A stretch of 64,000 nucleotides of DNA from Curvularia clavata (GCA_023920165.1 CP089281.1:248001-312000), one strand, 5' to 3'. Counted from the stretch's first letter, positions 10,140-52,687 are shown. Notes: generated by a model from the letters alone, not told the origin. Translations and numbers: made by a program.

Positions 10140-10644
10140 CAAGTGCGTGCAACGATTCCATCCCGGTGATATGGAAGCCAAGAGTGTTTCAGGGTCAGAC
10201 TAGACATACTTTCTTCCACAGCGCTGTCTTGCAAACACTATGCTGTTCCCGAGCACGTGGTGTTACGAACAGGGCTTCGTAATCTTAAGTGAAATGGGGG
10301 TGTGATGTATGTACCTTACTATCTGCCTTGTCAAGCGCAGCTTATAGTTGCATGCATTAGCGTCTGGGGTTGTTTGCGATTAGCGGCATGAATGCCTGTT
10401 CTGGATAAGATAGGCCTGCGGCGCAGTCCTCAACAGCGGTGGTGACAGGGATCCAAATCCATGGTGGTTCCTCCTCTGTATTGGGTGCTAGGCATATTTT
10501 CTAGCCTGCTCTCAGCTTTGACAGTGAACGCTTGAAGGTCTCATTATTTAGAGCCTAGAGATGCATAGCGAGGTGATATACTCTAGACACATTTACTCCA
10601 CACTTTATCTGCCTTTACATAGGACTCTGAAGACCCTTGTCAAA

Positions 10645-11595
10645 ATGGACGCTCTCAGCCTTACTGCATCGATCGTAAGCGTCGCCACAGTCGCTATACA
10701 AAGCATCCAATTCCTCACCAATACTATCGAAAAAGTGAAAGATGCGCCCAATGTACTCAAAAGCGTTACCACCGATCTTCAGGCGATCCATCTGGTTCTA
10801 AAAAGCTTGAATAAATTATTGGAAGATGATCCCTCGCAGGATATACGGGATGTTCAAATGAAGTATGCTGTTGAGAACTGCAGCAGAGCATGCAGCACAT
10901 TCCAAGTGCAAGTTAAGGATTGGATGAAGCATTCACAAGAAGACAAAATGTTCTGGATGGATAGATGGAAAGTCGGATTGTTCGGCCTTGAGCGCGTCAA
11001 GACATTCAGAGCGCAGCTGAGTGACAGCAAAAGCACTCTCAGTGTCGGCTTGAATACTATCACAGTGTAATTCTGTTTCCCACTCCCACGGATATCTCGA
11101 CTAGTTCTAATATATTGCAGTCTTGCAACATCTCGCCAAGAACACGTTATGGAAGAGATGAAGAAAATGATCTTACAGCAGAATGAGGTTCTCATTCAGC
11201 AAAAGATCACACAAGCAGATACTGAAGCAGCAGAGACACAAAGCGCCATACACGAGCTGATAATGAAGATGGATGAGCATCAAGGTTCTGTGGTTCGACG
11301 GAGCAGAGTAGAACTTATTCGAGAGCTTGAGACGCAGCAAGCAACGAACAGGGTCCTCATGGATATGTGTGAGGAAGCTCTTTCTGCAACCACACAAGCT
11401 CGTACGGGTCAGAAGATCAAAGGGCTCAAAGCAACCAACAACAGCTCAGCTCTTGCTGGATTCATCAACACTTCCAGTGATCGATGGAATATTGATCAGG
11501 ACATCTCGGAAATACATGCAGATAACTGGAGTACTGCACTCGCAGGGGTTATGGAAAATGTAGATTTCAGCTATCTGGGCCATAAGGGGGTGTGA
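10645..11595 (+). CDS. HeLo-like (HELL) cell-death effector with C-terminal HET-s-related amyloid motif (298 aa, 2 exons)
   Basis: N-terminus MDALSLTASIVSVATVAIQ...DAP..L is typical of the HeLo-like fungal STAND N-terminal domain. Intron 11067-11120 (GTAATT..TTCTAAT..CAG) joins two ORF-track pieces in frame. The C-terminus has two 21-aa pseudo-repeats. Confidence 0.88.
11407..11556 (+). repeat. Two amyloid pseudo-repeats R1/R2 (protein level)
   Basis: R1 GQKIKGLKATNNSSALAGFIN (11407-11469) and R2 DQDISEIHADNWSTALAGVME (11494-11556), 29-aa period. Confidence 0.8.
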
Positions 11596-12036
11596 GGAAG
11601 TGTCTGTACGAATTTTTGTATGTAGCACTACAAGGGATGGATGCATTGCATCATGCAGCTAAGCGCTGCTCCTCAGGAGTCAGGAACGACATGATGGGAT
11701 TAATTTGCCCTCGTATCTCACGTCCCAGATGTATGCATTTCGGATACGCTATTACTTCTTTGGTTCAGCCGGTATGCATGCGCAGGGTGACGGTCACCCC
11801 TTTTTACGTTGGGGGCGTAACCCCAATCTCGCCTGTGACCAACCCGACATACGTGAAACACAACCGAGTGCATGGGCAACCGTGCCGCACGCCTACATGT
11901 TTGCCGTTGCATGTCCTCCCTTCTCCTTCCTGGAACCCCACAGTACTCATAATACTGATATATTTCTACTCCTCAGGCAACGGGGCTACTCGTCGGTCGA
12001 CAAAAACTTCCATCTCAACGTCTAATTTTCAGAACA

Positions 12037-14811
12037 ATGTACGCAGGGCAATCTGAACTGCATCAAAATCTGAGCCACAACACTGTCCAGAATGGGTCAC
12101 AGGGGTTTTTTGGAACTGTGCAAACTCTGAATGTCGGAAGCGTTGCATCTTTAGAAGGTATCCCTGATGCTAAAGACTTTGTTTCGCATAACTCTGACGA
12201 AATTTGCATAGACATTGAGGAGCTAAAAGCCAAAGCATGTCGGAATGCGATTTTCATTTCTGACCCCAAGGTTGACCGCGAGGAACTTATCAGCGCTAAA
12301 GGCATTATAGTGCCTGGAACATGTGAATGGATCAAGAAAGACAAAAACTTTAAGGCCCTAAAAAGGGGAAAATTTTCACTTCTCTGGATTACCGGAGAAC
12401 CGGGGAAGGGCAAAACGATGCTCTCGATCTTCATTACAAGATACCTCGAAGAAACGTATCCCAAAAAAAAGGAAGGAGAAGTCATATACCATTTTTGTGT
12501 GCACAAGAAGAGAGACACAGGTGCTGCTTTGCTTCGTGGTCTACTATATCAGATTCTCAACAAACGTCACGAACTTACCGAAGAAGTGTTTTCGTACTTT
12601 GAAACGCCCGAGAAGACGCAGCAAGCACTGTCTTCCTTAGAAGCTCTCTGGGTCATCTTTCTCAAGCTTATCGAGCACCCAAAACTAGGCGTCATATTAT
12701 GCATACTCGATGGACTCGACGAGTGCGATGAACATACGCGTAGGTTTCTTTTGCCGAGATTTGCACATTACTTCGGCTCCAGCCAAACTGCACCTCGAAC
12801 TCGATTCAGGCTTATCGTCATAAGCCGAGCCCTTGAAGGTTTAGAGAAATTCAAGAAGATTGACCTCGACAACGATCCTGAGAGAAGAGGCCGAACAGAC
12901 ATGGAGCTATTCGTGTGCGAGAGAGTGGATGAATTATTCCGAGAAAAGAAATTCCACAATTCATTCCGTCTACATGTGCAGAACACTCTGCTTTTCAAAG
13001 CCGATGATACATTCCTGTGGGTAGGCTTTGTCGTCAACGATCTACTAAAGTTGCGCACATGGAGCCAAGTACAAAAGCAACTGGAATCACTCCCGGATGG
13101 ACTTAGCAGCATTTATGCGCGGATGTTATTAGAAATCCCGGAGAAAGAACGAGAAACGGCTCTGTCCATATTACGGTGGGTCTGCATTGCCCGGGAACCC
13201 CTGAGCCTGCTAGAGCTGGCTGAATTGATGGCTCTCCAACAACGCGGCCCTGGCCCCATCACATCCACAGGACCCAAGAGAGCCCTCGATCTTGTTGATC
13301 TCAAGCAAGAGGCCAAAGACGCGGTAACCGTATGTGGGCAGATCTTGAGATTGAAACATGAAGTAGTCACTTTCGTTCATAAAACAGCGGGAGACTTTCT
13401 AATGCGTAAAGAAAGAGAGGAAAACGAAGTACTCAGGGTCTTTCAACTGGAGTGTGAAGAGGCGCATCTTCTGCTAGCGCGAGCTTGTCTCCAATCCATT
13501 GCGCAAAGCGAGTTGTACACTTCGATTATCGATCAAAACCGACCATGCGCCCCAGGACATTCACCGTTCCTCCGTTATGCGATAGAATATTGGCCCCAGC
13601 ATGCTCAGAATTGCTGCCATAGGGCCAGCGATCTCTTTGATGACTTTTGTGCTGTTTTTGATTCCAATCCTGGCTTGCGCCAATATTGGTGGAAGGAGCA
13701 TCGCTATCTTTTGGCAAGACATTTTGATTGGCTGCACCCTATCCCCTTACTGAACATGGTAAGCTATCTGGGAATAACACCCTGGATAGAAGCGCTGGTG
13801 CAGAGAAATCCCTCGGGTACCGACATCGTAAATGAGAAAGACAGAAGTGGTAAGGGGCCAATAGAATGGGCTTGCAAAGGAAGACAAGAGAAAGCAGTGG
13901 AAACATTACTTGCACACATAGCCCGTATCGACAAGACTAAGCAGTACAGTTCTCTTATCAACAAAGCCATCGAATGGGGCAACCAGAAAATCCTCAGGAT
14001 GCTCGCAGAAAAGGGAGCAAACTTCAATGGTTCATGGCTACATAGGGCAGTCTGGCTCGGAAGCGAGACGGAAATATTCAAGTTACTCTTGAAAAAGGGT
14101 GCAAAGCTCGAGTCTAGGGACAAAGATGGACGTACGCCACTCTATCTTGCTGCGGAACTAGAAAAAGAAAGAATAGTGTCCTTTCTCATTGACGCAGGAG
14201 CGGATATCACGACCAAAGATAGTGCCTGCCGAACATTGTTACACGCTGCATGTTCTTCGAACATGGAACGCTTGGTGCGGAAGCTCTTGCATATGGAGCT
14301 CGATATTAGAGCGAAAGACAAGTTCAAAACTACCATGCTGCACGTATTAGCTCGCGATAATCTTTTCAGGGAGTACCGGCCACTATTCCGACTTCTAATA
14401 TCCGAGGGAGTAGAAGTCGAGGCGAAAAATTGTCATGGCTCGACGCCTCTGCATATGGCAGCTGCATCACACAATTTTGCACTTGTGGGACTCCTCATTG
14501 AGTATGGGGCAGACGTAAACGCGCAAAACAGATTCGGAAACATGCCACTGCATTCAGCCTTGATGTATGGCGGTTATGGAAAGGTAGCGAGGATATTGGT
14601 TCGCAATGGCGCTGACGTGAACGCTCCGGACGACCGGGGATACATTCCACTCAAGGATTGCATTCAGAAACATGAACCCAAGTTCCCAATCTTAGATCCG
14701 CAAGCACGAGTTACATCTTGTGAGTGTGTTAGGTGGAAACTCAGGGACGTAATGATGGCTAGAGAGTTAATAAAATCTGGCCTCTTCGAGATAGGCAATC
14801 CATTTGAATAG
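12037..14811 (+). CDS. Fungal NLR: N-terminal amyloid motif (R0), NACHT, ankyrin repeats
   Basis: Pre-NACHT SDPKVDRE..KG..PGTCEW, Walker A GEPGKGKT, Walker B ILDGLDEC, FLWV. About 10 ankyrin-like repeats (e.g. GRTPLYLAA, GSTPLHMAA, GNMPLHSAL). No folded N-terminal effector domain is evident. Confidence 0.93.
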   Translation: MYAGQSELHQNLSHNTVQNGSQGFFGTVQTLNVGSVASLEGIPDAKDFVSHNSDEICIDIEELKAKACRNAIFISDPKVDREELISAKGIIVPGTCEWIKKDKNFKALKRGKFSLLWITGEPGKGKTMLSIFITRYLEETYPKKKEGEVIYHFCVHKKRDTGAALLRGLLYQILNKRHELTEEVFSYFETPEKTQQALSSLEALWVIFLKLIEHPKLGVILCILDGLDECDEHTRRFLLPRFAHYFGSSQTAPRTRFRLIVISRALEGLEKFKKIDLDNDPERRGRTDMELFVCERVDELFREKKFHNSFRLHVQNTLLFKADDTFLWVGFVVNDLLKLRTWSQVQKQLESLPDGLSSIYARMLLEIPEKERETALSILRWVCIAREPLSLLELAELMALQQRGPGPITSTGPKRALDLVDLKQEAKDAVTVCGQILRLKHEVVTFVHKTAGDFLMRKEREENEVLRVFQLECEEAHLLLARACLQSIAQSELYTSIIDQNRPCAPGHSPFLRYAIEYWPQHAQNCCHRASDLFDDFCAVFDSNPGLRQYWWKEHRYLLARHFDWLHPIPLLNMVSYLGITPWIEALVQRNPSGTDIVNEKDRSGKGPIEWACKGRQEKAVETLLAHIARIDKTKQYSSLINKAIEWGNQKILRMLAEKGANFNGSWLHRAVWLGSETEIFKLLLKKGAKLESRDKDGRTPLYLAAELEKERIVSFLIDAGADITTKDSACRTLLHAACSSNMERLVRKLLHMELDIRAKDKFKTTMLHVLARDNLFREYRPLFRLLISEGVEVEAKNCHGSTPLHMAAASHNFALVGLLIEYGADVNAQNRFGNMPLHSALMYGGYGKVARILVRNGADVNAPDDRGYIPLKDCIQKHEPKFPILDPQARVTSCECVRWKLRDVMMARELIKSGLFEIGNPFE

Positions 14812-15222
14812 AAAATCAATCAAATTCGTCTTTACTCGAATGGCTCAAGTACAATGAACAAGAGCAATAAAACAGTAAAACTGATCGGAATTCAGAATGC
14901 AAGGCTCTGAGCAGAAGGATTTGGGGATAAGACTTTGGTCAACTATGTGCTGTCACGCGCAATAGTATACAGGTGATCGTCAGCAAATCAACTTCCAAGA
15001 GAGATTCTAGTAATCAAGTGTCACACGAAGCTGTGAAAATGTATCAATGCACTGCCTTTATGAGAATAAAAAAAGCGTACATAAGTGATCAATCACCTTC
15101 CGGTATCGCCAACACGATGATCTTGACTACAGTACCGAAAATGCAATTCAATTGCTATGATATCTTTGGCGCGGAACAGCCGCAGCATGCCACTATGCCA
15201 TCACTCTATTTCACCCTCGAGC

Positions 15223-16041
15223 CTAGCACGTAAACACCGATGGACCAGGCGACGTATAAGTCTTACTTCCCGCGTACAGATTGTACACAATACCCGCATC
15301 ATTCTGCTTGTATGCTCCCGGGAAGGAGACAGTCGCAGGTGTCTTATCAGCAGAGCCACCCACAACGTTAATCTGAGCGCATTCCTACAACACATGTTAG
15401 CATTTCCCATTCGGTTAAGACAACACAACGATAGTCTTACCATGTAGAACTGCGCTCCCATAAGCTGGCTCGCGGCGTGCAGCGCAATCAGCTCGCCCCT
15501 GAGCAGATACTGGCCTGGTGCAATGCACTTGGGGATGGTGACCGTCTGCACACCCTGGTTTGCAATCAGGCGGTCGACACCCCATTTTGTGCCGTCGAAT
15601 GCGTCTTGGGCGATCTTGAACCAGCCGCTGCCGACACCCGTGTCAGTCTTGGCGTCGCTGACCTTCTTCAAGTAGGCCATTACGGGGCCCTTGTGCGAGG
15701 CATCGACGACATCGTTGGGTCCAGAGGTGAGAGTGTGGCGCCATGTCATCGTTACTTGGGAGCCGGCTTGGACGGTTATGACGGTGTTGGTTTTGGCGGG
15801 GCCATCGTTGGGTGGGCCGTTGCAGGCGATGGAGTTGCTGGTCACGTCGCTGATGGGCTATTGTTTATGAGTCAGTGGGAGGAAAAGAAGAGTAGTTTTG
15901 GGAGATGGAAAGACGTACGCCATCGTAGGTCGGAACGCGGACGCCGTCGCCGACAGCACCACCGTTGACACTGAGGAAGATTGTGTGGGCAGAAGCAGAC
16001 GATGCTGCCGCAGCGAGGACAAGAGATGTTGAGAATTTCAT
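15223..16041 (-). CDS. AA9 lytic polysaccharide monooxygenase (3 exons)
   Basis: Signal peptide [18 protein letters not shown] followed by His1 (HTIF). Motifs [27 protein letters not shown] and FPGAY; ends PGPSVFTC*. No CBM1. Confidence 0.95.
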
Positions 16042-16695: not shown

Positions 16696-18948
16696 TCAAA
16701 CAAGCGTAATATCTTCGAATTCGGTGCCATCCGTCGCCACGACCTCCCCCTTCATGATTCCGTGAACATATGCTTCACCCAACAGTTCAAACTCCTGGTT
16801 CACACTACTGTCACGCTTTCGCCGCAACACAAACGGCACACAAGCTCGATCAAAGACAGCAATCTCATCGCCGACTTCAGCGCCTCTGGGAACTAATGCA
16901 AAGTAGCCTTCCTTAGTTACAGCGAACCGGCGCATCTTCAATGCGGCCCGAACTGCCGTTTGCAAGTCCTCTAAAGTCCTAGCTGGCTTCCGGGTTCTGA
17001 GGTTTTCAAGTGTAAAATGACCCTTTTGACGCCGTGCACTAATAGTCTGACCAGGCAGGGAAGGCGTCTGGCCTGTCGTTGAATCGAGGATCAAGCCAAA
17101 AGCTTCACTGTGATCGGGTGTGGGGGTTGAGGTGCCTGAACCGTCTCGCCCAGCCAGTATGGTGTAGAAGAAAGCTTCATAAACCGATACACCGGATAAG
17201 AGATATTTGTGCCACTGCCTCGAAGTCAAGGTCAGGTCAACATATGACTGCAGATAGCGATTCGCGTTTCTGGGGTCGTCGATATCGAGAATAGGATTCT
17301 GACCGACACAGCCCAAACCAGTAATCGTGTCGAAAAGCTTTCCAGTCAATGTAAGTGCCTTCTTGTCTTCACTCAGCATCATTTTCGGCCGCGCCTTCCC
17401 AGTGACGGGTCTCCCGCCAGCGCAGAACAGAGCCCAGGCTTTCGTCGAATAACCAAATGCTTCGGTCACTCGTGGTGTGCTCCAGTCTGGCACCCATGAC
17501 GGCTGCAGTGGTTGATCGTGATCAACACAGCTTAGAATTTCATATTGAAATGTTGGCAACTGTGTTATGCAAGCCTCGTGATATACTTCCCTTGTGGAGA
17601 TAGTGGGATTATAATTAGGGACAATGCTGGATTCGGCTATCCCAAGCACGCCGTAGACTTTGTCCTTGGGTTCAGTCGCCTGGGCATATCGCGTAGATAC
17701 CAGGATATCGAGAAGATATTTTCTCTGAGTGAGTACCTGCCCTTGAAGACGATCTGCCTGGATAGAATCAATAATCGCAGCTCCATGTGGCGGCAAGAGC
17801 TTTGCGTTCTGTTTGTGGAGAAATTGGCGATCCAAATCCTCGCTAGCAGTAAGCCAGCGGAGGATGCCAGTTTCTTCCAAACAGTAACACCATGACGCGA
17901 AGTCATCCCAACCAGCCGTAGCATTTCCGCACATGATGAAGAGGTGTTGTGACAAGACGGCTTCTTGTATCGTCCACAACCTACTGAACCATGGCCTACG
18001 TAGGACTTGGCGAACAGCCCACCATGCTTGGTCTAGGGCAGGAGGAAAGTCCAATCTGCCGAAGTCTGCTGGCGATACTTGCGCATCGGTTCCTTGCAGC
18101 CGGGCATATACAGTCTCCATTAAATCGAAGGCACAAACAGGATCCTCATCGTTGTCATCGCCTAGCCATATGAGCGTGTTGGTTGCATGCATATAAATCA
18201 TGCGCATTAATGGAATTTGCTGTCCCTTCTCCGCCAGATCCTGTTGATTGATACAAACCTGGTCAGTCCATACAAATACGCTCTTTTCCGTCAAGCGCAA
18301 GCGGCGCAAAGCACTGGCCAGGCTCTTTAAGATCTGTATAGATCCATTTTCTAGCCAGATAGTCTGGTCAAATAGGGGCGCACCCCAGACATAGCTGAGC
18401 GCAGTATACCACACCACACGCCCCGTGGCTAGTGAAATAGCATGATTCGTGCGTCTTGTATATGTGATGGTTCTTCTACTTGTATTGGCCGGATTATCGA
18501 GGGAATAGGCCACATGCTCATCCCTCGGTGGGTGCGAAAAGTCGATACTAACCGTGTGCAGCCTTCCTCGCAAGGGAGTCTCGGCATCACCGGCATAAAG
18601 CTCCAAAACACGTATTTCTCCTTCGCCAAGGGGTCCGTAAAGCGGAGATGAAGAGGAGTGGGTTTTGCCTTCCCCACTTTGTGACCGCTTGCGATCTAGG
18701 AACTCCGAGATATGGCCCAAAGCGATCACATCCACGATACCGTTAGCATCACTTGGGCCATCAGATGTAGCGGCCTTGAAGTCGGACGTTTTGGATAGCG
18801 CAGAGTAGAAACAATCACAGCCGTCTAGGGTAGTGAGTAAAACGGGTTGGCTAAATCTTCATAGTCATGTCACACCTTGTGGATTTGCTGCGCACGGACA
18901 TGTCGACGCGTGCTCTATATGCTGGTAGGATTTCTGTAAGTTGGTCAT
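16696..18948 (-). CDS. HET-domain (heterokaryon incompatibility, HET-6-like) protein
   Basis: Motifs YTALSYVWG, WTDQVCINQ.D..EK..Q...M..IY, RPWFSRLWTIQE, DKVYGVLG and GEAYVHGIMKGE. An inferred first exon 18948-18876 and intron 18875-18825 give an in-frame ATG start. Confidence 0.92.
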
Positions 18949-40130: not shown

Positions 40131-43100
40131 CTAATCATCCAGTCCAATATTCTTCAAACCCCCCTGCCTTGTCCAAAACGTGTCCCAAGCCTTTGGCCAC
40201 CTCTCTTCCTTCAAGCCCTTGAGCCAGTCCTTGACCGCAAATTCTTCCTCGCCCTCAATCCGAATCATACCATTCTTAATGCCCTTCCAGCCCTTCATTG
40301 GAACCTTGATATAGCGATGATCTGGACCGCAGAAACTAAGCCACGGCTCTTCAATCTCCCCGCGTGTCTGCGCTAGACGTTTGCCATGGCATTCTTCACA
40401 TAGGTCGCAGTTGACGCAGACCAAGCAGTAATACATTGTCTTAGCCCATCTGGTCATGCCCGTGCCACACCCATCGCACCAGATTCCAGTTCCAGTAACG
40501 TCTTCATCAAGCTCTTCGAATTCTTCTGCAGTAGATTCGGATTGCTTTTCAGTAGATTCTGGTTGTGCTTCAGTAGACTCTGGTTGTGCTTCAGTAGACT
40601 CTGGTTGTGCTTCAGAAGATTCTGGTACTACCGCAGTGGGTGTTGGCTGTGCTTCTGTAGTTTTTGACTCTTCTACAGTGGACTCCGGAACTGCTGCCGT
40701 GGAATCTGAAATTTCGGCGACTTCCGCAGAGTCTCGTCTTTGGCCAGCTGCCTTGTCGGGCAAGGTAGCGTCCCCGGCCTCCAACTCGCCATCTGCCAAT
40801 GGAGCTTTCTCAGCTTCGGCATTCTCTTTGGTGGTTTCTGTCGCATCTGCAGTCTTTTGCGTCGCATCAGCTTCGGTGCTGTCTTTCTCGGACGCACTTT
40901 CTGAGCCTTCCGTCTCACTGTTTTGATAATATATGCTGCGATCCAGGATGGAAAACTGTGCAGAGCATGCGATCTTGGCATCTCTTTCCAGACCATCCAA
41001 TGAGCCTAAGACTTTGGACAGCAGTCGTAGGCTTGAAGAGTCGTTCCACGACACGCTATCCTCGAGCCCAGCGATACAAGCATTGAATAGTTCATTCATA
41101 TGCTTCTGGAAATCCTTTGCAGGCCCCATAATCCGGAGCATATTTGCTAGAAGCATGCTCACATGGGATTCCTGAAAGTCGTCATCGCGATGGGCGTTTG
41201 GTAGAACCCTCAAGGTTTCGACAATCTCCTCTTTCTTCGTTGGGTCTGCAGAGTCCTGGAACTCATTAAAGAGTATTTCCGCAAGCTTCATTCGTTGCTG
41301 TGTCTTTTTCTCCTGCATTGTCTCTTCATCCCACCAGTCGGGCTTTGGGTTCATGGCCAGAATTTCCTGGCGAAGGGCTTTTCCCTTTTGAACATCGCCC
41401 ATCACCGGGTAGTAAAGATTTGCAATCGCTGACCGAATGTTGAACAAGAAGTAGCTGTCCTCGGGAAGAGTTTTGGCCAGAGCATATAGCCATTCCAGTA
41501 GGAGTGCAGTCTCCCCGGCCCGTTTCGCCGCTCTTTGCATGCGAGACTCTGCGTTTGAATCAACCCAGCCCCTGAAACAATATGTAAACCAACTGTTTCG
41601 CTCTTTTTCGGTCCAGGACTTGAGCTCACTCATGAGCTTGGTTCCATCGGGATCATTCTTCTCTTTAAACAAGAGGGTAATGTCATCGAGATTGGTACCC
41701 TGCAGTGGTTGGTCACCGGAGAACTTCCTAGCCTCATTCCAGATTCTCAAGGCTTCCTCGGGTTGCTCTATTTCTATGCAGGACCCGGCTTTAGCGGCTA
41801 ACAGTTCCAGTCGAATTTCGCTAAACTCCTTCTTTTTCTCTTTACTCAGATCCTCTGACTCTGGATCTGGCAGCATAGCGTATGCTTGGTCATGATACTT
41901 GATGGCCTCGTCATGTTCATTAATCCAAGCATACCATGGTGCAATAAGACGAAGTGTTTCAATCTTCTCTTGAGTATCGCCGTCCATTCGTTCCACAGCC
42001 TGCTTTAGGTACGAGACGCCTTCGGTGATGGTTGTCTTCCGGCGTTCTTCTTCATCGAAGTGAGCACCGTACCTACAGAGCGTGGATCCGACTGCTCTCA
42101 GAGTCTTGAAGTCTTCGAGGGGAATGTCGAATTGTGTAGTGACTTGATAAATGACCTTGAGTGGCTCCTCCTCATTCTCCTCCAACCGATTCGCCTGCAT
42201 CTGATTAGTAACTTATCATCGTGAGGCATGAAGTGCTTACTAAGCTAAGGATAAGTTTGATGTATAGAAAAATCTCGAATATCCACCATTCACGTGTAGC
42301 GTTCAGCCAGTTTTGAACGTGGCCCTTTGCCAGGGGAATTAGAACATTCTCCTTGTTGACGGCAAGTGCCCATTCCTTGACCTCGCTGTTCAGTTTTTCA
42401 TCTGCGACGGACGCTGACTTCTTTGCCCAAAGCAGAAGAGCGTCGTACCAGACAGGAGAACTATCGTCTGTTCGTTCGGGGTAAATATCTGTATGCCTTG
42501 CACGGAGTTCGAACAATCTTGCGATGTTGCTTGTGTTCTGTGTGATAGTGTGCAACAAAGTCGCCACTTGCTGAACTGTTTCTTCTGTCGCTTGCTCCAC
42601 GTCCAGCTCTTTAAGGTGTTCGTACCAATACTGGGTTGCGTAAAAGGAGAGCCCATAGGTTGCTTGGTCCTGGTCTTCAGGATTTTCGGCAGCTTTGATC
42701 ATGATTTCTACGCACATTTGGAGAATCGTCAAGTGCGCAGCTGCAGCTGGCGTTCGGAACTCGGTAGCGCCATCAGCCTCGACACTGACACTCTTGAAAT
42801 ACTGCCTCAGGGAGCGGTCTTGAAATGAAAGAGGAGAATCGCGATACTCGAGTTCAGGGACAGTGTCGTCCTTGGTTTCATCGTTTTCATCGTCATCTTT
42901 GTCATCTTCCTTGACGTCCTCCTCGGTCTGTCGGTTCTGCCCGAGTTCAAGTATGCGTGATGAACGGCCAATTATCTCTTCTTCAATGTCGAAAGACTCA
43001 TCAGAAAGCGTCAGTTGTACTAGGTTTGAGGCTTCGGCTAAGCTCAGCGATCGTTTGGAAAAGGCTAGCCATGCGAAAAGTTTCTTCAATGCTTGATATT

Positions 43101-45145
43101 GCGCATCTGAACGATTCCGACGGCATTCCTCAAGAAGAAGCTTATAAAGGTCGTGTAGAGAATTTGGCAACTTCTCCAACTCTTCCAATACGGCTCGCTC
43201 TCGGCCAATGTAGGAAAACCTCCGCAGCACGTGCTCCACGTAAAGCATACTGTCTGCTTGCTTAACGACCTTTCGGGCAATGGCTCTCTTGACAGCGTGG
43301 CTGAATTTCCGAACCCGTGGCAGGTTATGAAGACGATTCTTTACGAGTGCCTTGATGTCAGGCTTCATTACCTCCTTCGTAACCTCGATGACTGGAGGAT
43401 CGAAAAGTTGCAGAATGGGCTTCTCTTCTGGCCTGCTCGTTACAAGTACTGAGATGTTGGCATCATCAAGCTTCAGATCAGATAGAAACTGTGTCATGAT
43501 GCCACCTTGTTGAATATTTGCCTCATCTAATCCATCGAACACAAGGAATAGGCGACCAGCGGACTTTTCCTTACTTGGAAACATGGAAAAGAATACCCTT
43601 TCCCAAGTGGACACCTCGGATGACTTCCCAGAGTCTTCTCTTATGTTTGCTGCCACCTGCTCGGCGTACTTGTTGTTTGATTCGGCAATCTGGAGTGCAG
43701 CAGACGCGAACGCATTTTGTACCGACTGCAGGTATGGATGTTCTTCTTTGAAGTAGAAGTACGCAAAGCAATTGTGCTCATCCTGGACTGCGCGCAGCTC
43801 TTGAACCGCTGAGTAGGCTAGGAATGACTTGCCCATACCCTCATCACCTTTTAGCCATAACAGGCGATTTTCTCCTTCTTTCCAGGATTTGAAGTGGGAG
43901 TGCTCACTGAGCCACTTGGCCGTGTGCTCGACTCGAGAATCGCGCATATCTTCATGCTGTGCCAGGTTCTCCCGGTGCGCGTCAGTCCAGGAAGGGAATG
44001 TTTTCTCGTTTTCGGTGAAGAACTTCTTGATCTCTCGCAAGGCTTGAAACTTGCGATCACCACCATCGCCTTTTGTTTTCGCACTTTGCTTCTTCTTCTC
44101 CTTCTCCTCTTTCTCAGATGTTTTTCCGAATTTCTCCACCATCGACTTTTGGAGCTCGAGGAGTATAGCGTGGCTCTCATTCTGCTTGGCTTGAACTGCG
44201 ACGAATCCTTCGCTAACCACTGCTTCCAGTTTCAAGCTGCTCATGTATAACTGCTGCACGTCTTGGCCAAGGTTTTGGCGAAACTGTTGCAGCTTTTCAT
44301 CCAGTTCGTCGAGTTTAGCAGCGTTGGCGGATGTGTCTTCTTGTACTGCATTGAGCATATCGTTTCCCTCCTTTACCTCATCCTGGACAGTTCTGATGGA
44401 GCTATAAGTCTCATAACCAACAGTTTGGTTGAGCTCCTCTATCGAGGCTTGCATGGCGGCGAATGCAGCCAAGAGCTCTTGGTCTTCCATATTCCAAAGC
44501 GCATTGAGCCATTGTGCTATAGATAATCAGCATGTTCTGCTACAAGGATTGCGATTCTTACAAAACCGTTTCTTTTTGATGAGGTATCTCACCCTGCCAC
44601 ATACTGAGAGCTGCATAGAAAATACCCGAACAATGGCAATAGCGAGTGGTCCAGACTCTGCCCGTTGCTCGAGAATGGCAAGTCGCCCAAAGAACCGAGC
44701 CGAGTACTCAAAGAACGATTCAACACGGTCGTAATCGGCCTTCACACCAGCGAAAGCCTGCTGACATTGAGTGACGATATCTTCGAAAGCCAGTTTCACT
44801 TACAGATATCAAACGACTCGCGGCCGTGAATACAAGCCCCACCGGCATTGCTGGTGGAAACGCACCTGCGGCAGATCCAATCGCAGCAATACCGTCTATG
44901 CATTTTTGCATATCCCCGAGAGAATTACCCATAGCTGACCGGAACTTAGACATCTTGCTCCCATCGTCGCGAAACCCCTTGAACCTTTTCATGCCCTCGT
45001 CGAGGCTTTGCATTGCGCCGTCTATACTCTGTGCGCCCATGGATGAAAGATCTTCACCGGTTCGTGCATTGTAGTCGCTTATGGCTTGCGTCCATAGTCG
45101 ACCAAGATCAGTGGCCGAGCTCTGTTTCGCAGTCATGGTCTCCAT
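40131..45145 (-). CDS. Fungal NLR-like STAND protein: Goodbye-like N-terminus, NACHT, helical/TPR-like repeats, C-terminal ZZ zinc finger (4 exons)
   Basis: N-terminal LW..AI.DY..RTG..L...F..FR pattern, Walker A GDEGMGKS, Walker B LVFDGLDE, C-terminal WCDGC..YYCLVCVNCDLCEECH. Introns 44803-44758, about 44561-44517 and about 42240-42201 join the ORFs. Confidence 0.88.
40528..40626. repeat. 21-bp coding minisatellite (about 4.5 copies, EAQPEST)
   Basis: Unit TCAGTAGAYTCTGGTTGTGCT is tandemly repeated just upstream of the ZZ-finger coding region. Confidence 0.9.
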
Positions 45146-47551: not shown

Positions 47552-49024
47552 TTAGGCTCGACCATTAACACACCAATGAGTCGAATAAACCAAAGCTTCT
47601 CCGGAAGAACTTTCAACGCGAAAAGTCATCGTCACGCAGTCTTTACTGCCCCTCAGTTTCCCTACCAATGCTACAGCAGCTCCATCAAGAATCTCAGCGG
47701 CTGCCGGGTCCATTAAATCGTTCTCGTCAGTCGCATCAAGAGTTCTAGGGGTGATGTATGTCGCTCCATCGCGGAAATACCGCTTTTCTGAGGTCTTTTC
47801 CTCCTTACGGCCAGTCGCAGATCTCTTGATGTGCGATTCGATTTCGCTCTCTGAGGGCTCCGATAAGACCCAGTCCCAGTGCGTCCACCTAGCCTCATGA
47901 TCATGAGCTTCGATCTCTTTGGTGGGTAGCCTGCCATAATGGATAAGGTACTTCCAGAGTGACGTTATGTTTCTATCTGATTGATAAGGGCCGCGCCGAT
48001 TGATCCATTCAACCCATCTTGCGACGATTGACTTTGCTCTTTCCACTGTGACTTCAAAATATTCTCCGTGGGATTGCCGGCATGAGGAGCAATGCCAAGG
48101 TTTGCGCAAGTGCTGCAGATCGGAAAGGATTAACTTCTCAGCCCGCTTCACCCATGTGACGCGTTGCGAGATATGTATTGTCTCCAAATTTCGACCACAC
48201 TTTTCATGTTGGTTAGCACGCTTCTTCGGATCTTTGGCTCGGCCAATCTTCAAAAACCCGGTCTCGGGGTCATGGAGAATGTAGACAAAGCCCTCCTCGT
48301 CCGATGGCAAAATCTCCTTTGTGGCAATGTCAGACAAATACCAAGTCACTAGCTGTGTAGTATTGCTGTTGTTGGCCCGCATAATTTCTTTCTGATTGTC
48401 ATTCGTCTCAGAATCTTTTCCTCTCATGTTATCATATCGAAAACTCCTATCAAGCAACTTATTTGCGCCGCTTGCTCGTGGAGGGCTAGTGCTGAGCTGC
48501 CTGATCCGGTCAGAGAGCTCTTTTTGGTCGTTGCTTGGATCATTCTCCTTGTCATGTATTGCTTTACATTTTGAACAACCATCTTGATGATTCCTCAGGT
48601 TCCCTGGTTTGACGTAACTCATCCCACAAAGGGCCCGAAGTTTCTGAGTGCCGGTTCTTGGGCTGCTCTCGTACTTCCTTGTCGAAGTTTGCTCGCTATG
48701 TTCTGGGCTTGCGGTGCTGGAGGGTATTGAAAAGTTGGGTTGCTTCAAACACGCTGACAAACCGACACCGGTTCTTGCTTTCAAAGCCGTTGGAGGGGTT
48801 TCGGGGCCTGATCGAGAGCGAGGAGTGGTTTTGTCATCCTTCTCATCATCCGAATCAATAATGAATGGGGTTTCAAGCGAAGAACCTTTCTCCTTGTATG
48901 GTTCTGTTCCGAGTGTGCTTGAGTGTATAGGGTCATTGGTGAGACGAGCGTTTGCGCTTTTTCTTCGATTTTTTTCAAGACTATCCTTGGGCACAGGGGG
49001 GCCAAGAGAAACGCGATGAACCAT
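47552..49024 (-). CDS. T5orf172/MUG113-like GIY-YIG-family domain protein A
   Basis: EEGFVYI...LKIGRA.DP..R....KCG...AEKLI..L...C..C..H.EYF. Likely start is MVHRVS at 49024; the ORF-track extension upstream is probably non-coding. Confidence 0.85.
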   Translation of the reverse strand: MVHRVSLGPPVPKDSLEKNRRKSANARLTNDPIHSSTLGTEPYKEKGSSLETPFIIDSDDEKDDKTTPRSRSGPETPPTALKARTGVGLSACLKQPNFSIPSSTASPEHSEQTSTRKYESSPRTGTQKLRALCGMSYVKPGNLRNHQDGCSKCKAIHDKENDPSNDQKELSDRIRQLSTSPPRASGANKLLDRSFRYDNMRGKDSETNDNQKEIMRANNSNTTQLVTWYLSDIATKEILPSDEEGFVYILHDPETGFLKIGRAKDPKKRANQHEKCGRNLETIHISQRVTWVKRAEKLILSDLQHLRKPWHCSSCRQSHGEYFEVTVERAKSIVARWVEWINRRGPYQSDRNITSLWKYLIHYGRLPTKEIEAHDHEARWTHWDWVLSEPSESEIESHIKRSATGRKEEKTSEKRYFRDGATYITPRTLDATDENDLMDPAAAEILDGAAVALVGKLRGSKDCVTMTFRVESSSGEALVYSTHWCVNGRA

Positions 49025-50678
49025 TCTGGGAAGTAAGATAGTGACGAGGTAGGTCTGCAGAAGAATGTAACTGTAGAGAGTGTTCTGACACCACAAAGAG
49101 GATACATTACGCTCTATTTGTATCTCACTATCAGATACAATCAGACTAAAGGCCATTCGAAGGCAGTGCCGTTGTAACACAAAAAGGCAACGTTCTGTTG
49201 CACGGACGGACAACCAGCCACAAACGTGCGCCTGCCACAGCCTTGCATTCATGAAACGAGAAGTTCGTCGTAATCCCATGCACGCTGTAGGTCCTAGCTT
49301 CCGCGGCAGGAGATAGGATATGTTGAGGCCTCGCCGACGGCGACCATTTACAGCCTTGTCATAGTTAGGTGGGCGAATCATGCACGAAGTAAGAATCAAT
49401 GCAACAAGACCACGCCTTTTCTCGGATATACTGACCAGGATCACTATCTACGCGGTCCTGTTAGTATGCAACTGAACAAGTCCATGTTCAGTATGATAAT
49501 TGGTCATTTCAAGAGTTTGTGGTTGGGGGCCAATTTATCTGCGTGGGGTTGTTGGATTGCTAGTAGTGCGCACGCGCGTCTTCTGAAACGCCTGTGCTCC
49601 AATTTCGGCGACGAACCTTCTTTGGTACATACCACCTACGAGCATCATTCGAATACTCCTTTCAGCCTTGGATGCGCGAAAGACCATCTTGCTCCGCGCC
49701 TGAGGTTGGTCTGCCTTCACGTAACTCAACTTGTGCTATCCTAACCTTTCCTACTTTAGCCGTTCTAGTTTCTTTGACTGGCTATATTGGATGCAGATAT
49801 CAGTAGCCGCGGACACTATCGGGACGGCCCACTGGCGCCTCCAGAATCCGGGGGAGGCTGACCAAGAGTGGTTAATGCTGGGTGGGGTGAACGGAGCGGA
49901 AACTCCACACACACACGTGGCGCGGAGGATCGCGTTTGAAACAAGATCATGTCAAACCAAGCGCGTCACTGCTCGGAAAGACGGCGAATATAGGCGTCTA
50001 TTTACCACGTGGGATATGTTATGAGGTTGTGGTTATAGGTTGGTCTCATGTGGGTAACAGCATAACATGATGGGAAAGTGAACAGACAACGCACAATCCA
50101 GCCAGTGCTGCAAAGTTTTCCTAGAGCGAAGGACATCAATTACAAATTTTCAGACAGCGAGACAATATGTGTTCGAGTTGACTTGTCGCTGAATCTCGGC
50201 TGCGTAAGAATTTGACGCGTTGCTTCCTAAGGTGTTAGGAGCCCCTGCAGAACACTTTGTCGAAGACCTGCGGCTCTGCGGCACAGCTCATGCAGCCCCC
50301 AAATAACTGCAATATTTGGATCCCTGCACTGAGGCATACACGAACTCGGTCGTTTCATAAACGATCCTGCGTGTCAATTATGCTACTGTGGCGTTCTACT
50401 GCAATAGGTGCACAGCCTTCATCCTTTACACATGGTTCGATCTCACCAGCCATCAGACCGCAATACCAAGTGTTCGTGGGGGGACGGTGATATTGATCGC
50501 TAATTCTGGTGTTTCACGAGAAAATACCTCTAGATAAGTCCTGTAGTATAAGTATTGTCTACTCTAATGGATTGTTGACAGCAGAACACTTATATTCTTT
50601 TGGTTCTTTTGATCCTATACTCGAAATCTACTCCAATCTCTCAGCCAAAAAATCTTCTTTATACTTCCTATCGACATC

Positions 50679-52687
50679 ATGGCTTCTATGTCTTTTGAAA
50701 GCGCCCGGAAGCCCCGTGGCACGAGAAAGTCCGATGTTTTCGTTGATGGCGACGCCGAGGTTACGAGCAAGCATAGGAAGGCCCAACCATCCTTCAAAGA
50801 AGACCTTTCTTTATTGAGAGATTCCATAACTATCTCTACAACCAGAAGTAGCAGTGGGAGTTCTGTACGACCACAGTGGGCTTCTCTTGCATTTGATTCA
50901 CTCTCCGACAAGAGAGGGCCAGACTTGACAACCTTACTGGACCCAAGAAATCTCTCATGGTCTTCTTCGACAGCGAAAACTTACAATAGGTTTTCACCGG
51001 CTTCTTCTGTGGGTGTCTGGGATCTTCCAGAGACACCTCCTCGCTTATCCGACACGCCTTCTCCGGGCCAGACATGGACACCTTTAACACCTCCAACGCC
51101 CCCGAGTCCGTCATTGGAACGCCGAAAAGGCTCCAAATTAGTAGCCAAAAAGCTAAAAGAGAGTTACTTCGATGATGCAGTGGGGTCCAATGACGTGAAT
51201 AGCGATTGGCAAGAAAAAGATGGCTTCCGCCCGAGGAAACTTTTTCGCAACTATACTGCGGAACTTGAAAAAAGTGGGTCACATCTACCTTTTGGCTATC
51301 GAAGAAATCTTCTAACTCATGAGTTGCAGTCTCGAAAGCTAATGCTGCTGCTGGCCAAATCAAGTTCAACGTGGAACCGTCCTTCGATTTCTCCCTTGAT
51401 GAAGCACAGCCGATCAGTTCTCGTACCCGCTCCAAGACCAGCAAAGCAGTTCAACTTCCCGCATCCCATGATCCAATACAATCAAATGACATTCCAAGCG
51501 TTGTAGTAGCACCATTAGTCTCTGGTTCTGAACTTCCCTCTTTACTGGAGTTGATACTACCACTCGACCTCTACAAGAGACTAGATGGGACTTCCAGTAC
51601 ATGCATCGGATCTATGGAATCAAGGTCGTATGCACGATGCAGCAACAGCCCGAGAGGGTCTTTGGGAACTGCTCTCGCTATTGCTGGAGAACTTGCAAGA
51701 TCCAGAGCTGAAAAAGACTATGAGACCATGGTTTGTGAAATCGAAGAGCTCGTGCACGAGGCGATGTGTGGCACTCATAGAAATGTTGTACTCAAGGAAA
51801 CCAAAAAAGGGGTAAGAATTGAAGAATTACGAAATCACCTCTACCATTTCAAGACCAAGTCGAAGATAGACAGGCAGGCGCTCCAACAATGGCTTGATAC
51901 CATATCAAATCCCAAGGCTTCAGCAGACCACATCCCATGGGTACGCCGTGCATTTGAACCTACTGTCGTCGCCAATCTGCACTCTGTGCCGTGCAAAGCA
52001 TTAGGAACCCCATCTAAATCAATCAGAACGACACCCGAACCACTCAGACCCGCACCCAACGCCTCAAAGTCCAATGGGCAAATCTCATCTTTCGCTGATT
52101 TCACTCCCTTCCAACTCAAAAAAACAAAAGGCATTCCTGTCTCGGACGCCCTCATCATGGAAATCAAGAAACCATTAGGTGCAAGCGAAACCAAGTCCGG
52201 TTTCATCTACATGTTCTGGGACAAGCGGTACTTTGGCAAAGTCAAGATCGGGCGCACCAACGATATCAAAAGACGGCTTAAGGAATGGAACAAAAAATGT
52301 GGCAAAACACATAGCTACCTTTCCCAAGACGATCGGAGCTGTGTTGAGATGCCACATGTAGGGCGTGTCGAGAGACTGATACATACCGAGCTGAAGGAGT
52401 GCCGGGAAAAGAGGAAATGCGAGGGGTGTGAAACGTTGCACCAGGAGTGGTTTGGCGAAAATGAGGTGCATGCTGTCAAGGTAGTAAGGAAATGGCAGGA
52501 GTGGATGATGCAGCGGCCGTATGTGATGAACGCGACAGGTCAGTGGGAGCTCAGACCGGAAATGTTGGAATCGCTTGGGCAAGTGTGCGAGCCGTTGGCT
52601 AGGGACGAGGTCGTGGTCAAGCAGCCGAGGAAGAGTGAGGGAGCGAAACGTTCTTCGAGGAAGAAGGGCGGGCGAAAGACTATGTAG
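50679..52687 (+). CDS. T5orf172/MUG113-like GIY-YIG-family domain protein B (2 exons)
   Basis: SGFIYMF...VKIGRT.D..RRL.EW..KCG...RVERLIH.EL...C.GC...HQEWF. Intron 51274-51329 (GTGGGT..CTAAC..CAG) joins ORFs 50679 and 51371. Confidence 0.88.

Follow-up and report, generated by a model that had tools for sequence, protein, structure and literature searches.

The closest described systems to the gene pair analyzed here, which occupies positions 10645 to 14811 of a 64,000-nt stretch of Curvularia clavata DNA (GCA_023920165.1 CP089281.1:248001-312000; this whole stretch is called the window), are fungal pairs of a NOD-like receptor (NLR) and an effector that share an amyloid motif. In HELLF/FNT1 of Podospora anserina (HRAM5, PDB 6EKA) the effector likewise combines a HeLo-like domain with two pseudo-repeats, and the adjacent NLR, which carries an r0 motif, is an NB-ARC/TPR receptor. 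A preliminary description of the window had listed HELLF and FNT1 as Fusarium genes; they are Pa_3_9900/9910 of P. anserina according to bioRxiv 10.1101/2020.07.06.188508, where it is also described that HELLF(209-277) behaves as a prion and that full-length HELLF moves to the membrane and kills upon contact with the prion form. HET-S/NWD2 of the same species (HRAM1, PDB 2RNM/2KJ3) follows the same logic: its adjacent NACHT NLR bears r0, its pore-forming effector a two-rung solenoid, and NWD2 r0 templates HET-S (PMC4518210). HET-S/NWD2 differs from the pair in the window in possessing a HeLo instead of a HeLo-like domain, an N at motif position 3 and a WD-repeat receptor. In HELLP/PNT1 (PP motif) and the sigma-motif systems, too, an NLR shares an amyloid motif with an effector of HeLo-like or SesA type. 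However, their motif is present in a single copy, either a pseudo-palindromic GxQxG core or the sigma motif of about 40 aa, whereas the window harbors the doubled 21-aa HRAM pattern.

More closely related are the pairs of subfamily HRAM2, a motif family that was catalogued in 2015 by Daskalov, Dyrka and Saupe (PMC4518210). In file S1 of that paper the motif clade of the window is recorded from Aspergillus fumigatus, Aaosphaeria, Lophium and others, together with r0 motifs of the adjacent NLRs; the GQKIKG repeat occurs in 10 rows, all with an 8-aa loop, and for seven of these rows the r0 of the adjacent NLR is given. Table 1 assigns two HRAM2 proteins and no other class to each of A. fumigatus and Cadophora (PMC4518210), and in file S1 both species have two rows in the GQKIKG clade. 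The agreement of these counts identifies the clade as HRAM2. In Table 2, each r0 motif of HRAM2 (25 of 25) is reported to group with its cognate r1/r2 motifs (PMC4518210). Pairs of the HRAM type were recovered again by Wojciechowski et al. 2022, a few of them resembling HRAM2 according to that paper (PMC9815663). Among the rows of file S1, two correspond to the homologues P0001 (Aaosphaeria arxii 422914) and P0005 (Lophium mytilinum 615678), and the A. fumigatus rows to AFUA_8G05770 / KEY82242 (cluster of P0127). The adjacency of such pairs in other fungi is taken from PMC4518210, as listed there.

The locus in the window is very probably a two-gene NLR/effector amyloid-signaling module of the HRAM type, belonging to subfamily HRAM2. 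The AFUA_8G05770 pair with its NACHT-ankyrin neighbor and the pairs of Aaosphaeria arxii 422914 and Lophium mytilinum 615678 show the same effector architecture, the same consensus of the two effector repeats (R1 and R2), the 8-aa loop between them and the aromatic tail. Like the window they possess Q3 and a NACHT-ankyrin receptor with r0 near residue 8, and their exon 2 is 48-52% identical to that of the window. The window departs from these pairs in its receptor motif (R0), a Pleosporales-like variant (HQ.LSH..VQ.GSQ) that has N at position 8 and F at position 18, and in R2, whose end, TALAGVM, is nearer to R1 than in most members. The locus thus adds a further member to HRAM2 and not a new kind of system. 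The preliminary description had left the subfamily open and had presented the locus as an uncharacterized, ankyrin-sensing member of its class. The clade, however, is listed in file S1 and is attributable to HRAM2 through Table 1, and NACHT-ankyrin receptors of this motif are not new, since the r0 printed there for A. fumigatus (PMC4518210) is present in the NACHT-ankyrin protein P0029 of strain Af293.

The effector is encoded on the plus strand by two exons. Its reading frame starts with an ATG at 10645 and runs into a TAA at 11068-11070 unless an intron is removed. The predicted intron (11067..11120, 54 nt, GT..AG), in which this TAA is in frame, begins with GTAATT, ends with TTGCAG and contains a CTAAT branch-like site. 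Exon 1 (10645..11066) encodes the N-terminal part of the HeLo-like (HELL) domain including an extreme N-terminal hydrophobic helix, and exon 2 (11121..11595) encodes a helical hairpin, a prion-forming-type region and the stop codon, a TGA at 11593-11595. The predicted spliced product has 298 aa, is thus shorter than 310 aa, and carries the HeLo-like domain at its N-terminus. The start at 10645 is favored over an in-frame ATG upstream at 10561 because the homologues begin with MDPLS; this string opens all five of them, and its counterpart in the window is MDALS. The spliced effector is colinear with four of the five homologues and gapless at the junction. The fifth, P0004, is a model of the Joint Genome Institute (JGI) and has an 18-aa insert exactly at the exon junction, which looks like the same intron retained in the model. 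The HeLo-like N-terminus claimed in the preliminary description was borne out by the match to PF17111 (E 5.9e-24), in which residues 1-140 align with profile positions 1-137 of 209. SesA also matched the effector (E 1e-5), slightly below the family cut-off. For exon 2 no Pfam family was found above the cut-off, and a sequence search with the HeLo-like exon against PDB gave nothing useful (E 4.3).

In the register described for HRAM motifs, position 19 is G, positions 5, 8, 10, 16 and 18 are hydrophobic, and position 3 holds a residue that depends on the subfamily (PMC4518210). R1 (11404..11466, +, effector residues 236-256, TGQKIKGLKATNNSSALAGFI), given here in the register that file S1 of PMC4518210 uses for 'motif 1', has its G at position 19, and R2 (11491..11553, +, effector residues 265-285, IDQDISEIHADNWSTALAGVM) follows after an inter-repeat loop of 8 aa, NTSSDRWN (11467..11490, +). 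Both repeats lie within the last 80 residues, which fits the pattern of 21-aa pseudo-repeats with a loop of 6-18 aa. The core positions 5, 8, 10, 16, 18 and 19 are I, L, A, A, A and G in R1 and I, I, A, A, A and G in R2, so that both repeats agree with all core rules of HRAM motifs. R0 (12058..12120, +, NLR residues 8-28, LHQNLSHNTVQNGSQGFFGTV) agrees with the core rules at positions 5, 10, 18 and 19. When the three copies are aligned without gaps, Q3, N12, S14 and G19 coincide in all of them, and positions 5, 10, 16, 17, 18 and 21 are occupied by hydrophobic or small residues; R0 and R2 share 5/21 residues, R1 and R2 9/21. The register used here begins one residue before that of the preliminary description, whose motif strings were found in its own register at effector residues 237-257 (R1) and 266-286 (R2) and at NLR residues 9-29 (12061-12123, R0), together with the DFSY tail; its gapless alignment of the three copies was likewise reproduced. 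R1 carries the charges K4, K6 and K9, facing D2, D4, E7 and D11 in R2, and R0 lacks D, E and K and contains two each of H and S. Both the charge complementarity of R1 and R2 and the composition of R0 fit the published pattern, in which r1/r2 are complementary in charge and r0 motifs are poor in D/E/K and richer in S/H (PMC4518210). The C-terminal tail of the effector (11554..11592, +, ENVDFSYLGHKGV) includes ENVDFSY and contains aromatic and glycine residues; HRAM proteins have been described with such a tail (PMC4518210).

The residues at the discriminating positions point to HRAM2, as Q3 is present in R0, R1 and R2, and R1 and R2 possess A at 16 and 18 without the core Q of HRAM5/HRAM4. The residue rules are those of the text of PMC4518210, and the assignment of the clade was made from its Table 1 and file S1. 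HRAM1 does not apply, as position 3 is Q and the HRAM1 prion-forming domain model PF11558 gave no match. HELLF and HRAM5 are marked by QxFG and by a core Q ahead of the glycine, where the window has QKIK, QDIS and ALAG, so that HRAM5 does not apply either, despite homology to HELLF (E 2.6e-5). In our own count from the profile alignment, HELLF matches 8/21 residues of R1 and 6/21 of R2, and its loop is two residues shorter than that of the window.

The NLR gene (12037..14811, +) is a single uninterrupted open reading frame (ORF) of 924 aa, identical to the recorded protein P0006. It has the same orientation as the effector gene, from whose stop codon it is separated by an intergenic spacer of 441 nt (11596..12036). 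Thus the 298-aa effector, the intron at 11067-11120 and the NLR 441 nt downstream, as given in the preliminary description, agree with the ORFs and coordinates in the sequence. A single r0 sits at the very N-terminal end of the NLR, at residues 8-28; most HRAMs begin within positions 5-9 of the NLR, according to PMC9815663. The nucleotide-binding NACHT / NPHP3_N domain (12316..12828, +, residues 94-264) matches PF24883 (NPHP3_N, E 9.3e-30) and PF05729 (E 7e-8) and contains the Walker A motif GEPGKGKT (12394-12417, +, residues 120-127). The ankyrin-repeat region (13864..14598, +, residues ~610-854), which is presumed to be the ligand sensor, matches Ank_2 (E 5.1e-47), Ank (E 1.7e-34) and others, and no tandem repeats were found in it at the DNA level. 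The next in-frame Met of the NLR sits within the P-loop (GKGKTM). Therefore, an intact NACHT domain needs a start at or before 12037, and R0 is then included in the protein. The sequence TTTTCAG at 12026-12032, five bases ahead of the start codon, resembles a 3' splice acceptor, and the NLR may accordingly possess an intron in its 5' untranslated region or an upstream exon. One sequencing run (X1, of guessed kind) yielded one contig only, of 251 nt; it lies inside the NLR (13081-13331) and is silent on splicing and on the transcript start.

The similarity of R0 to the effector repeats was assessed by gapless profile ranking across all 62,611 21-mers of the six-frame translation of the window. 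With a profile of R1 and R2 from five other species, the two top ranks went to R1 and R2 of the window, in this order, and the third rank to R0 in the same register; R0 also ranked third with the profile of R2 only. Conversely, when the profile was built from the r0 motifs that nine other NLRs possess, R0 of the window came first, R2 second and R1 third, all in one register. The margins in these rankings are small (15.4 and 15.2 versus 15.0 for the next 21-mer). When 120 related NACHT-ankyrin NLRs were compared over their first 60 residues, the effector-derived profile ranked the window NLR sixth, with a score of 16.5 versus a median of 0.6, and picked out r0-like motifs at residues 7-10. In ten aligned r0-bearing NLRs, G20, Q22, F24 and G26 are invariant. 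Judged by these profile scores, the match of R0 to the effector repeats is beyond chance. A word-based search with NLR residues 1-95 recovered only the NLR itself (1/76 candidates). Just behind r0, a further short element of the G.V.F.G type (e.g., FGSVSFAG, GRDVIFSG) is common to several related NLRs; at its place, within residues 29-45 (12121-12171), the window NLR reads LNVGSVAS.

An all-against-all HMMER comparison of exon 2 gave 90 cluster representatives at E<=1e-3, 36 at <=1e-10 and 4 at <=1e-30. Because the conserved intron splits the effector, stored models of the family are systematically broken, as seen in short ORFs and in the P0004 insert; 64 of the 90 representatives (within P0126-P0215) are shorter than 200 aa and are mostly ORFs of exon 2 only. 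Intron-blind gene callers likewise keep only the exon-2 half when the 54-nt intron splits the effector, and the architecture of domain plus motifs is thereby hidden. By score thresholds, both repeats are present in 57/90 representatives; among these the loop has 8 aa in 43 and 6-11 aa in 55. P0133 (1089 aa, on a 3.7-kb contig) shows a HeLo-like domain and an R1-like repeat, no R2, and then about 830 residues without a Pfam match; this protein may result from the fusion of gene models or represent another architecture.

Constraints on the repeats were counted in an alignment of 56 sequences, comprising the window, four named homologues and 51 two-repeat representatives, the rest being dropped; these sequences were pre-selected by repeat score and are interrelated, and the counts describe the family and not independent events. 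The two G19 glycines are the only invariant columns in the whole exon-2 alignment. Positions 5 and 8 are hydrophobic in 56/56 members in both repeats. The charges of R1 and R2 at position 4 are opposite in 33/56 members and alike in 0/56, and R1 is net positive together with a net negative R2 in 42/56. A K or R at position 15 occurs in 11/56 (R1) and 8/56 (R2). A search of PDB with the profile of these 56 sequences returned 6EKA, the HELLF prion fibril, with E 2.6e-5 and an alignment spanning both repeats, and the next matches were helical designs with E>=0.034. Against the five homologues, the repeat region shows 62-71% identity (36-41/58) and the HeLo-like part 44-49% (93-103 of 198-210). 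By sequence identity no part of the effector is better conserved than the repeat region. The layout claimed in the preliminary description, a two-repeat effector resembling HET-S and HELLF beside an NLR with one motif copy, is thus supported by sequence and family data.

This conservation also bears on the names attached to the effector. PF17111 is presently named 'PigL_N' in Pfam, and homologues in UniRef are labeled 'Azaphilone pigments biosynthesis cluster protein', from which one might take the effector for a PigL-type accessory protein of an azaphilone pigment cluster whose likeness to HRAM repeats is incidental. We consider this hardly credible, as the repeats are the very part that is best conserved and that matches HELLF, while P0004 carries the JGI label 'Fungal N-terminal domain of STAND proteins', and no polyketide synthase or tailoring enzyme was found among the 16 other ORFs of the window that were scanned. 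That none of these ORFs is a member of a pigment cluster argues against a literal reading of the name 'PigL'; the former Pfam name of PF17111 was Helo_like_N.

Structure prediction is compatible with the HRAM2 module. AlphaFold2 predicted for exon 2 helices at 2-49 and 56-95, followed by two beta-repeats, with a mean predicted local distance difference test (pLDDT) score of 90.3. Each of the two repeats was given strands at motif positions 3/4-6, 9-10 and 15-21, and the repeat region alone gave the same strand pattern (pLDDT 78.4), so that a two-rung strand pattern of the repeat region is predicted by these models, which are monomer predictions and not fibril structures. With the whole exon-2 model, Foldseek found only look-alikes with a helical hairpin (E>=0.19). 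A complex prediction with two copies of NLR residues 1-45 and the effector repeats scored 0.00; alignments were unused and the fold of the partner was uncertain, so that this result is neutral on binding.

Several observations weigh against the HRAM2 module, in addition to the pre-selection of the aligned sequences mentioned above. In the fold comparisons, Foldseek with the repeat region ranked 6EKA first (E 1.0) and HET-s 2RNM fifth (E 2.8), which is non-significant, with template modeling (TM) scores of 0.29/0.35. VIA-align reached Z>=2 in only 2/24 chains, and both were weak matches: 6EKA with Z 4.4, a root mean square deviation (rmsd) of 4.7 and 51 aligned residues, and HET-s 2RNM with Z 4.0, rmsd 6.4 and 61 aligned residues. 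The fold comparisons thus lend weak support to the predicted two-rung solenoid, and the sequence homology to HELLF appears to be the firmer link. The canonical HET-s model PF11558 gave no match to the effector at E<=1. Position 15 is S in R1, T in R2 and Q in R0 and not the R/K preferred in HRAM; a positive charge there is a preference only and is lacking too in the rows that file S1 gives for this motif clade (PMC4518210). In the literature search no experimental study of the HRAM2 motif was found. The remaining points concern R0. It departs from the core rules by a polar N at position 8 and a G at position 16, and shares only 4/21 residues with R1, a weak similarity; the R1-only profile ranked it only 83rd among the 21-mers. 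Hidden Markov models (HMMs) of 21 columns, built from R1/R2 or from r0, did not report R0 in HMMER at E<=100, a miss that is probably due to the narrow profiles and to the length model on a 950-aa target. In leave-one-out scoring R0 is the most divergent of ten r0 motifs (24.0 versus 31.2-49.1).

These properties of R0 would also be expected if the two genes were adjacent but uncoupled, R0 having drifted (N at 8, G at 16, F at 18) until it no longer templates the effector, in a decaying or rewired module. The low identity of R0 to both repeats (4-5/21), its divergence from other r0 motifs and its absence from the reports of the short HMMs all speak for this possibility. However, the score of R0 on the effector R1+R2 profile, 16.5, falls between the extremes reached by the nine other r0 motifs (6.9-27.1) and exceeds that of the documented r0 of A. 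fumigatus (10.9). Moreover, both ORFs of the pair are intact, and R0 has close relatives, sharing 9/21 residues with the r0 of Bipolaris P0074 and 10/21 with that of Alternaria P0008 (counted by eye), which indicates a conserved sub-type. An uncoupled pair is thus quite improbable. The HRAM2 module with a coupled receptor is preferred. The window shares its r0 pattern HQ.LSH..VQ.GSQ with Alternaria P0008 and Bipolaris P0074, and TALAGVM in R2 with the 71%-identical P0126. R0 and R2 might belong to a lineage-specific HRAM2 sub-type that has co-evolved toward a private templating specificity, an orthogonal amyloid channel that would no longer cross-seed with other HRAM2 members or with HELLF and in which the Asn at core position 8 would discriminate; we regard this extension as unlikely.

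How the HRAM2 module would operate can be proposed by analogy with NWD2/HET-S and FNT1/HELLF, from which we infer every step. If both genes are expressed and the effector transcript is spliced as predicted, the ankyrin repeats would sense a ligand and the NACHT domain would oligomerize. The N-terminal R0 segments gathered in this way may adopt the fold of a beta-arch or solenoid rung, and this amyloid nucleus would template R1-R2 of the effector into a two-rung beta-solenoid. The HeLo-like helix would thereby be released and could insert into the plasma membrane, and this putative toxicity would result in the death of the cell. Instead, the effector might act mainly as a self-propagating prion, or as part of a het-s/het-S-like pair of incompatibility alleles, with the NLR not being the trigger. 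In both HELLF and HET-s the repeat region does propagate as a prion, according to the sources on these proteins, and an ORF with a HET domain lies nearby (16696-18207). Such a role is compatible with control by an NLR, though, and an adjacent NLR with a matching r0 is the signature of exactly this control (PMC4518210); in addition, the ankyrin repeats are without high internal similarity at the DNA level. A prion or incompatibility function without the NLR as trigger is thus very improbable, and the receptor-controlled HRAM2 module is retained. With this locus one intact, tightly linked HRAM2 receptor/effector pair is added to the in-silico catalogue. As HRAM2 is homologous to the solved prion domain of HELLF, such pairs are convenient for testing which residues underlie cross-seeding barriers.

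Further ORFs of interest are found in the surroundings of the pair. Directly downstream of the NLR lies an AA9 lytic polysaccharide monooxygenase exon (15201-15749, -), which matches PF03443 with E 6.3e-30. About 2 kb past the NLR, the ORF at 16696-18207 (-) contains a HET (heterokaryon incompatibility) domain (PF06985, E 2.2e-8) and represents a second gene of the non-self or cell-death type close to the pair. A second NACHT NLR is located at 40131-44490 (-), where the ORF 42205-44490 matches NPHP3_N (E 7.7e-34) and is followed by the ORF 40131-42200 without a Pfam match; its N-terminus of 188 aa is helical and charged and shows no amyloid-like motif. Finally, T5orf172/MUG113 (GIY-YIG-like) domains occur at 47552-49381 (-) and 51614-52687 (+), with E 9.6e-17 and 1.2e-22, respectively.

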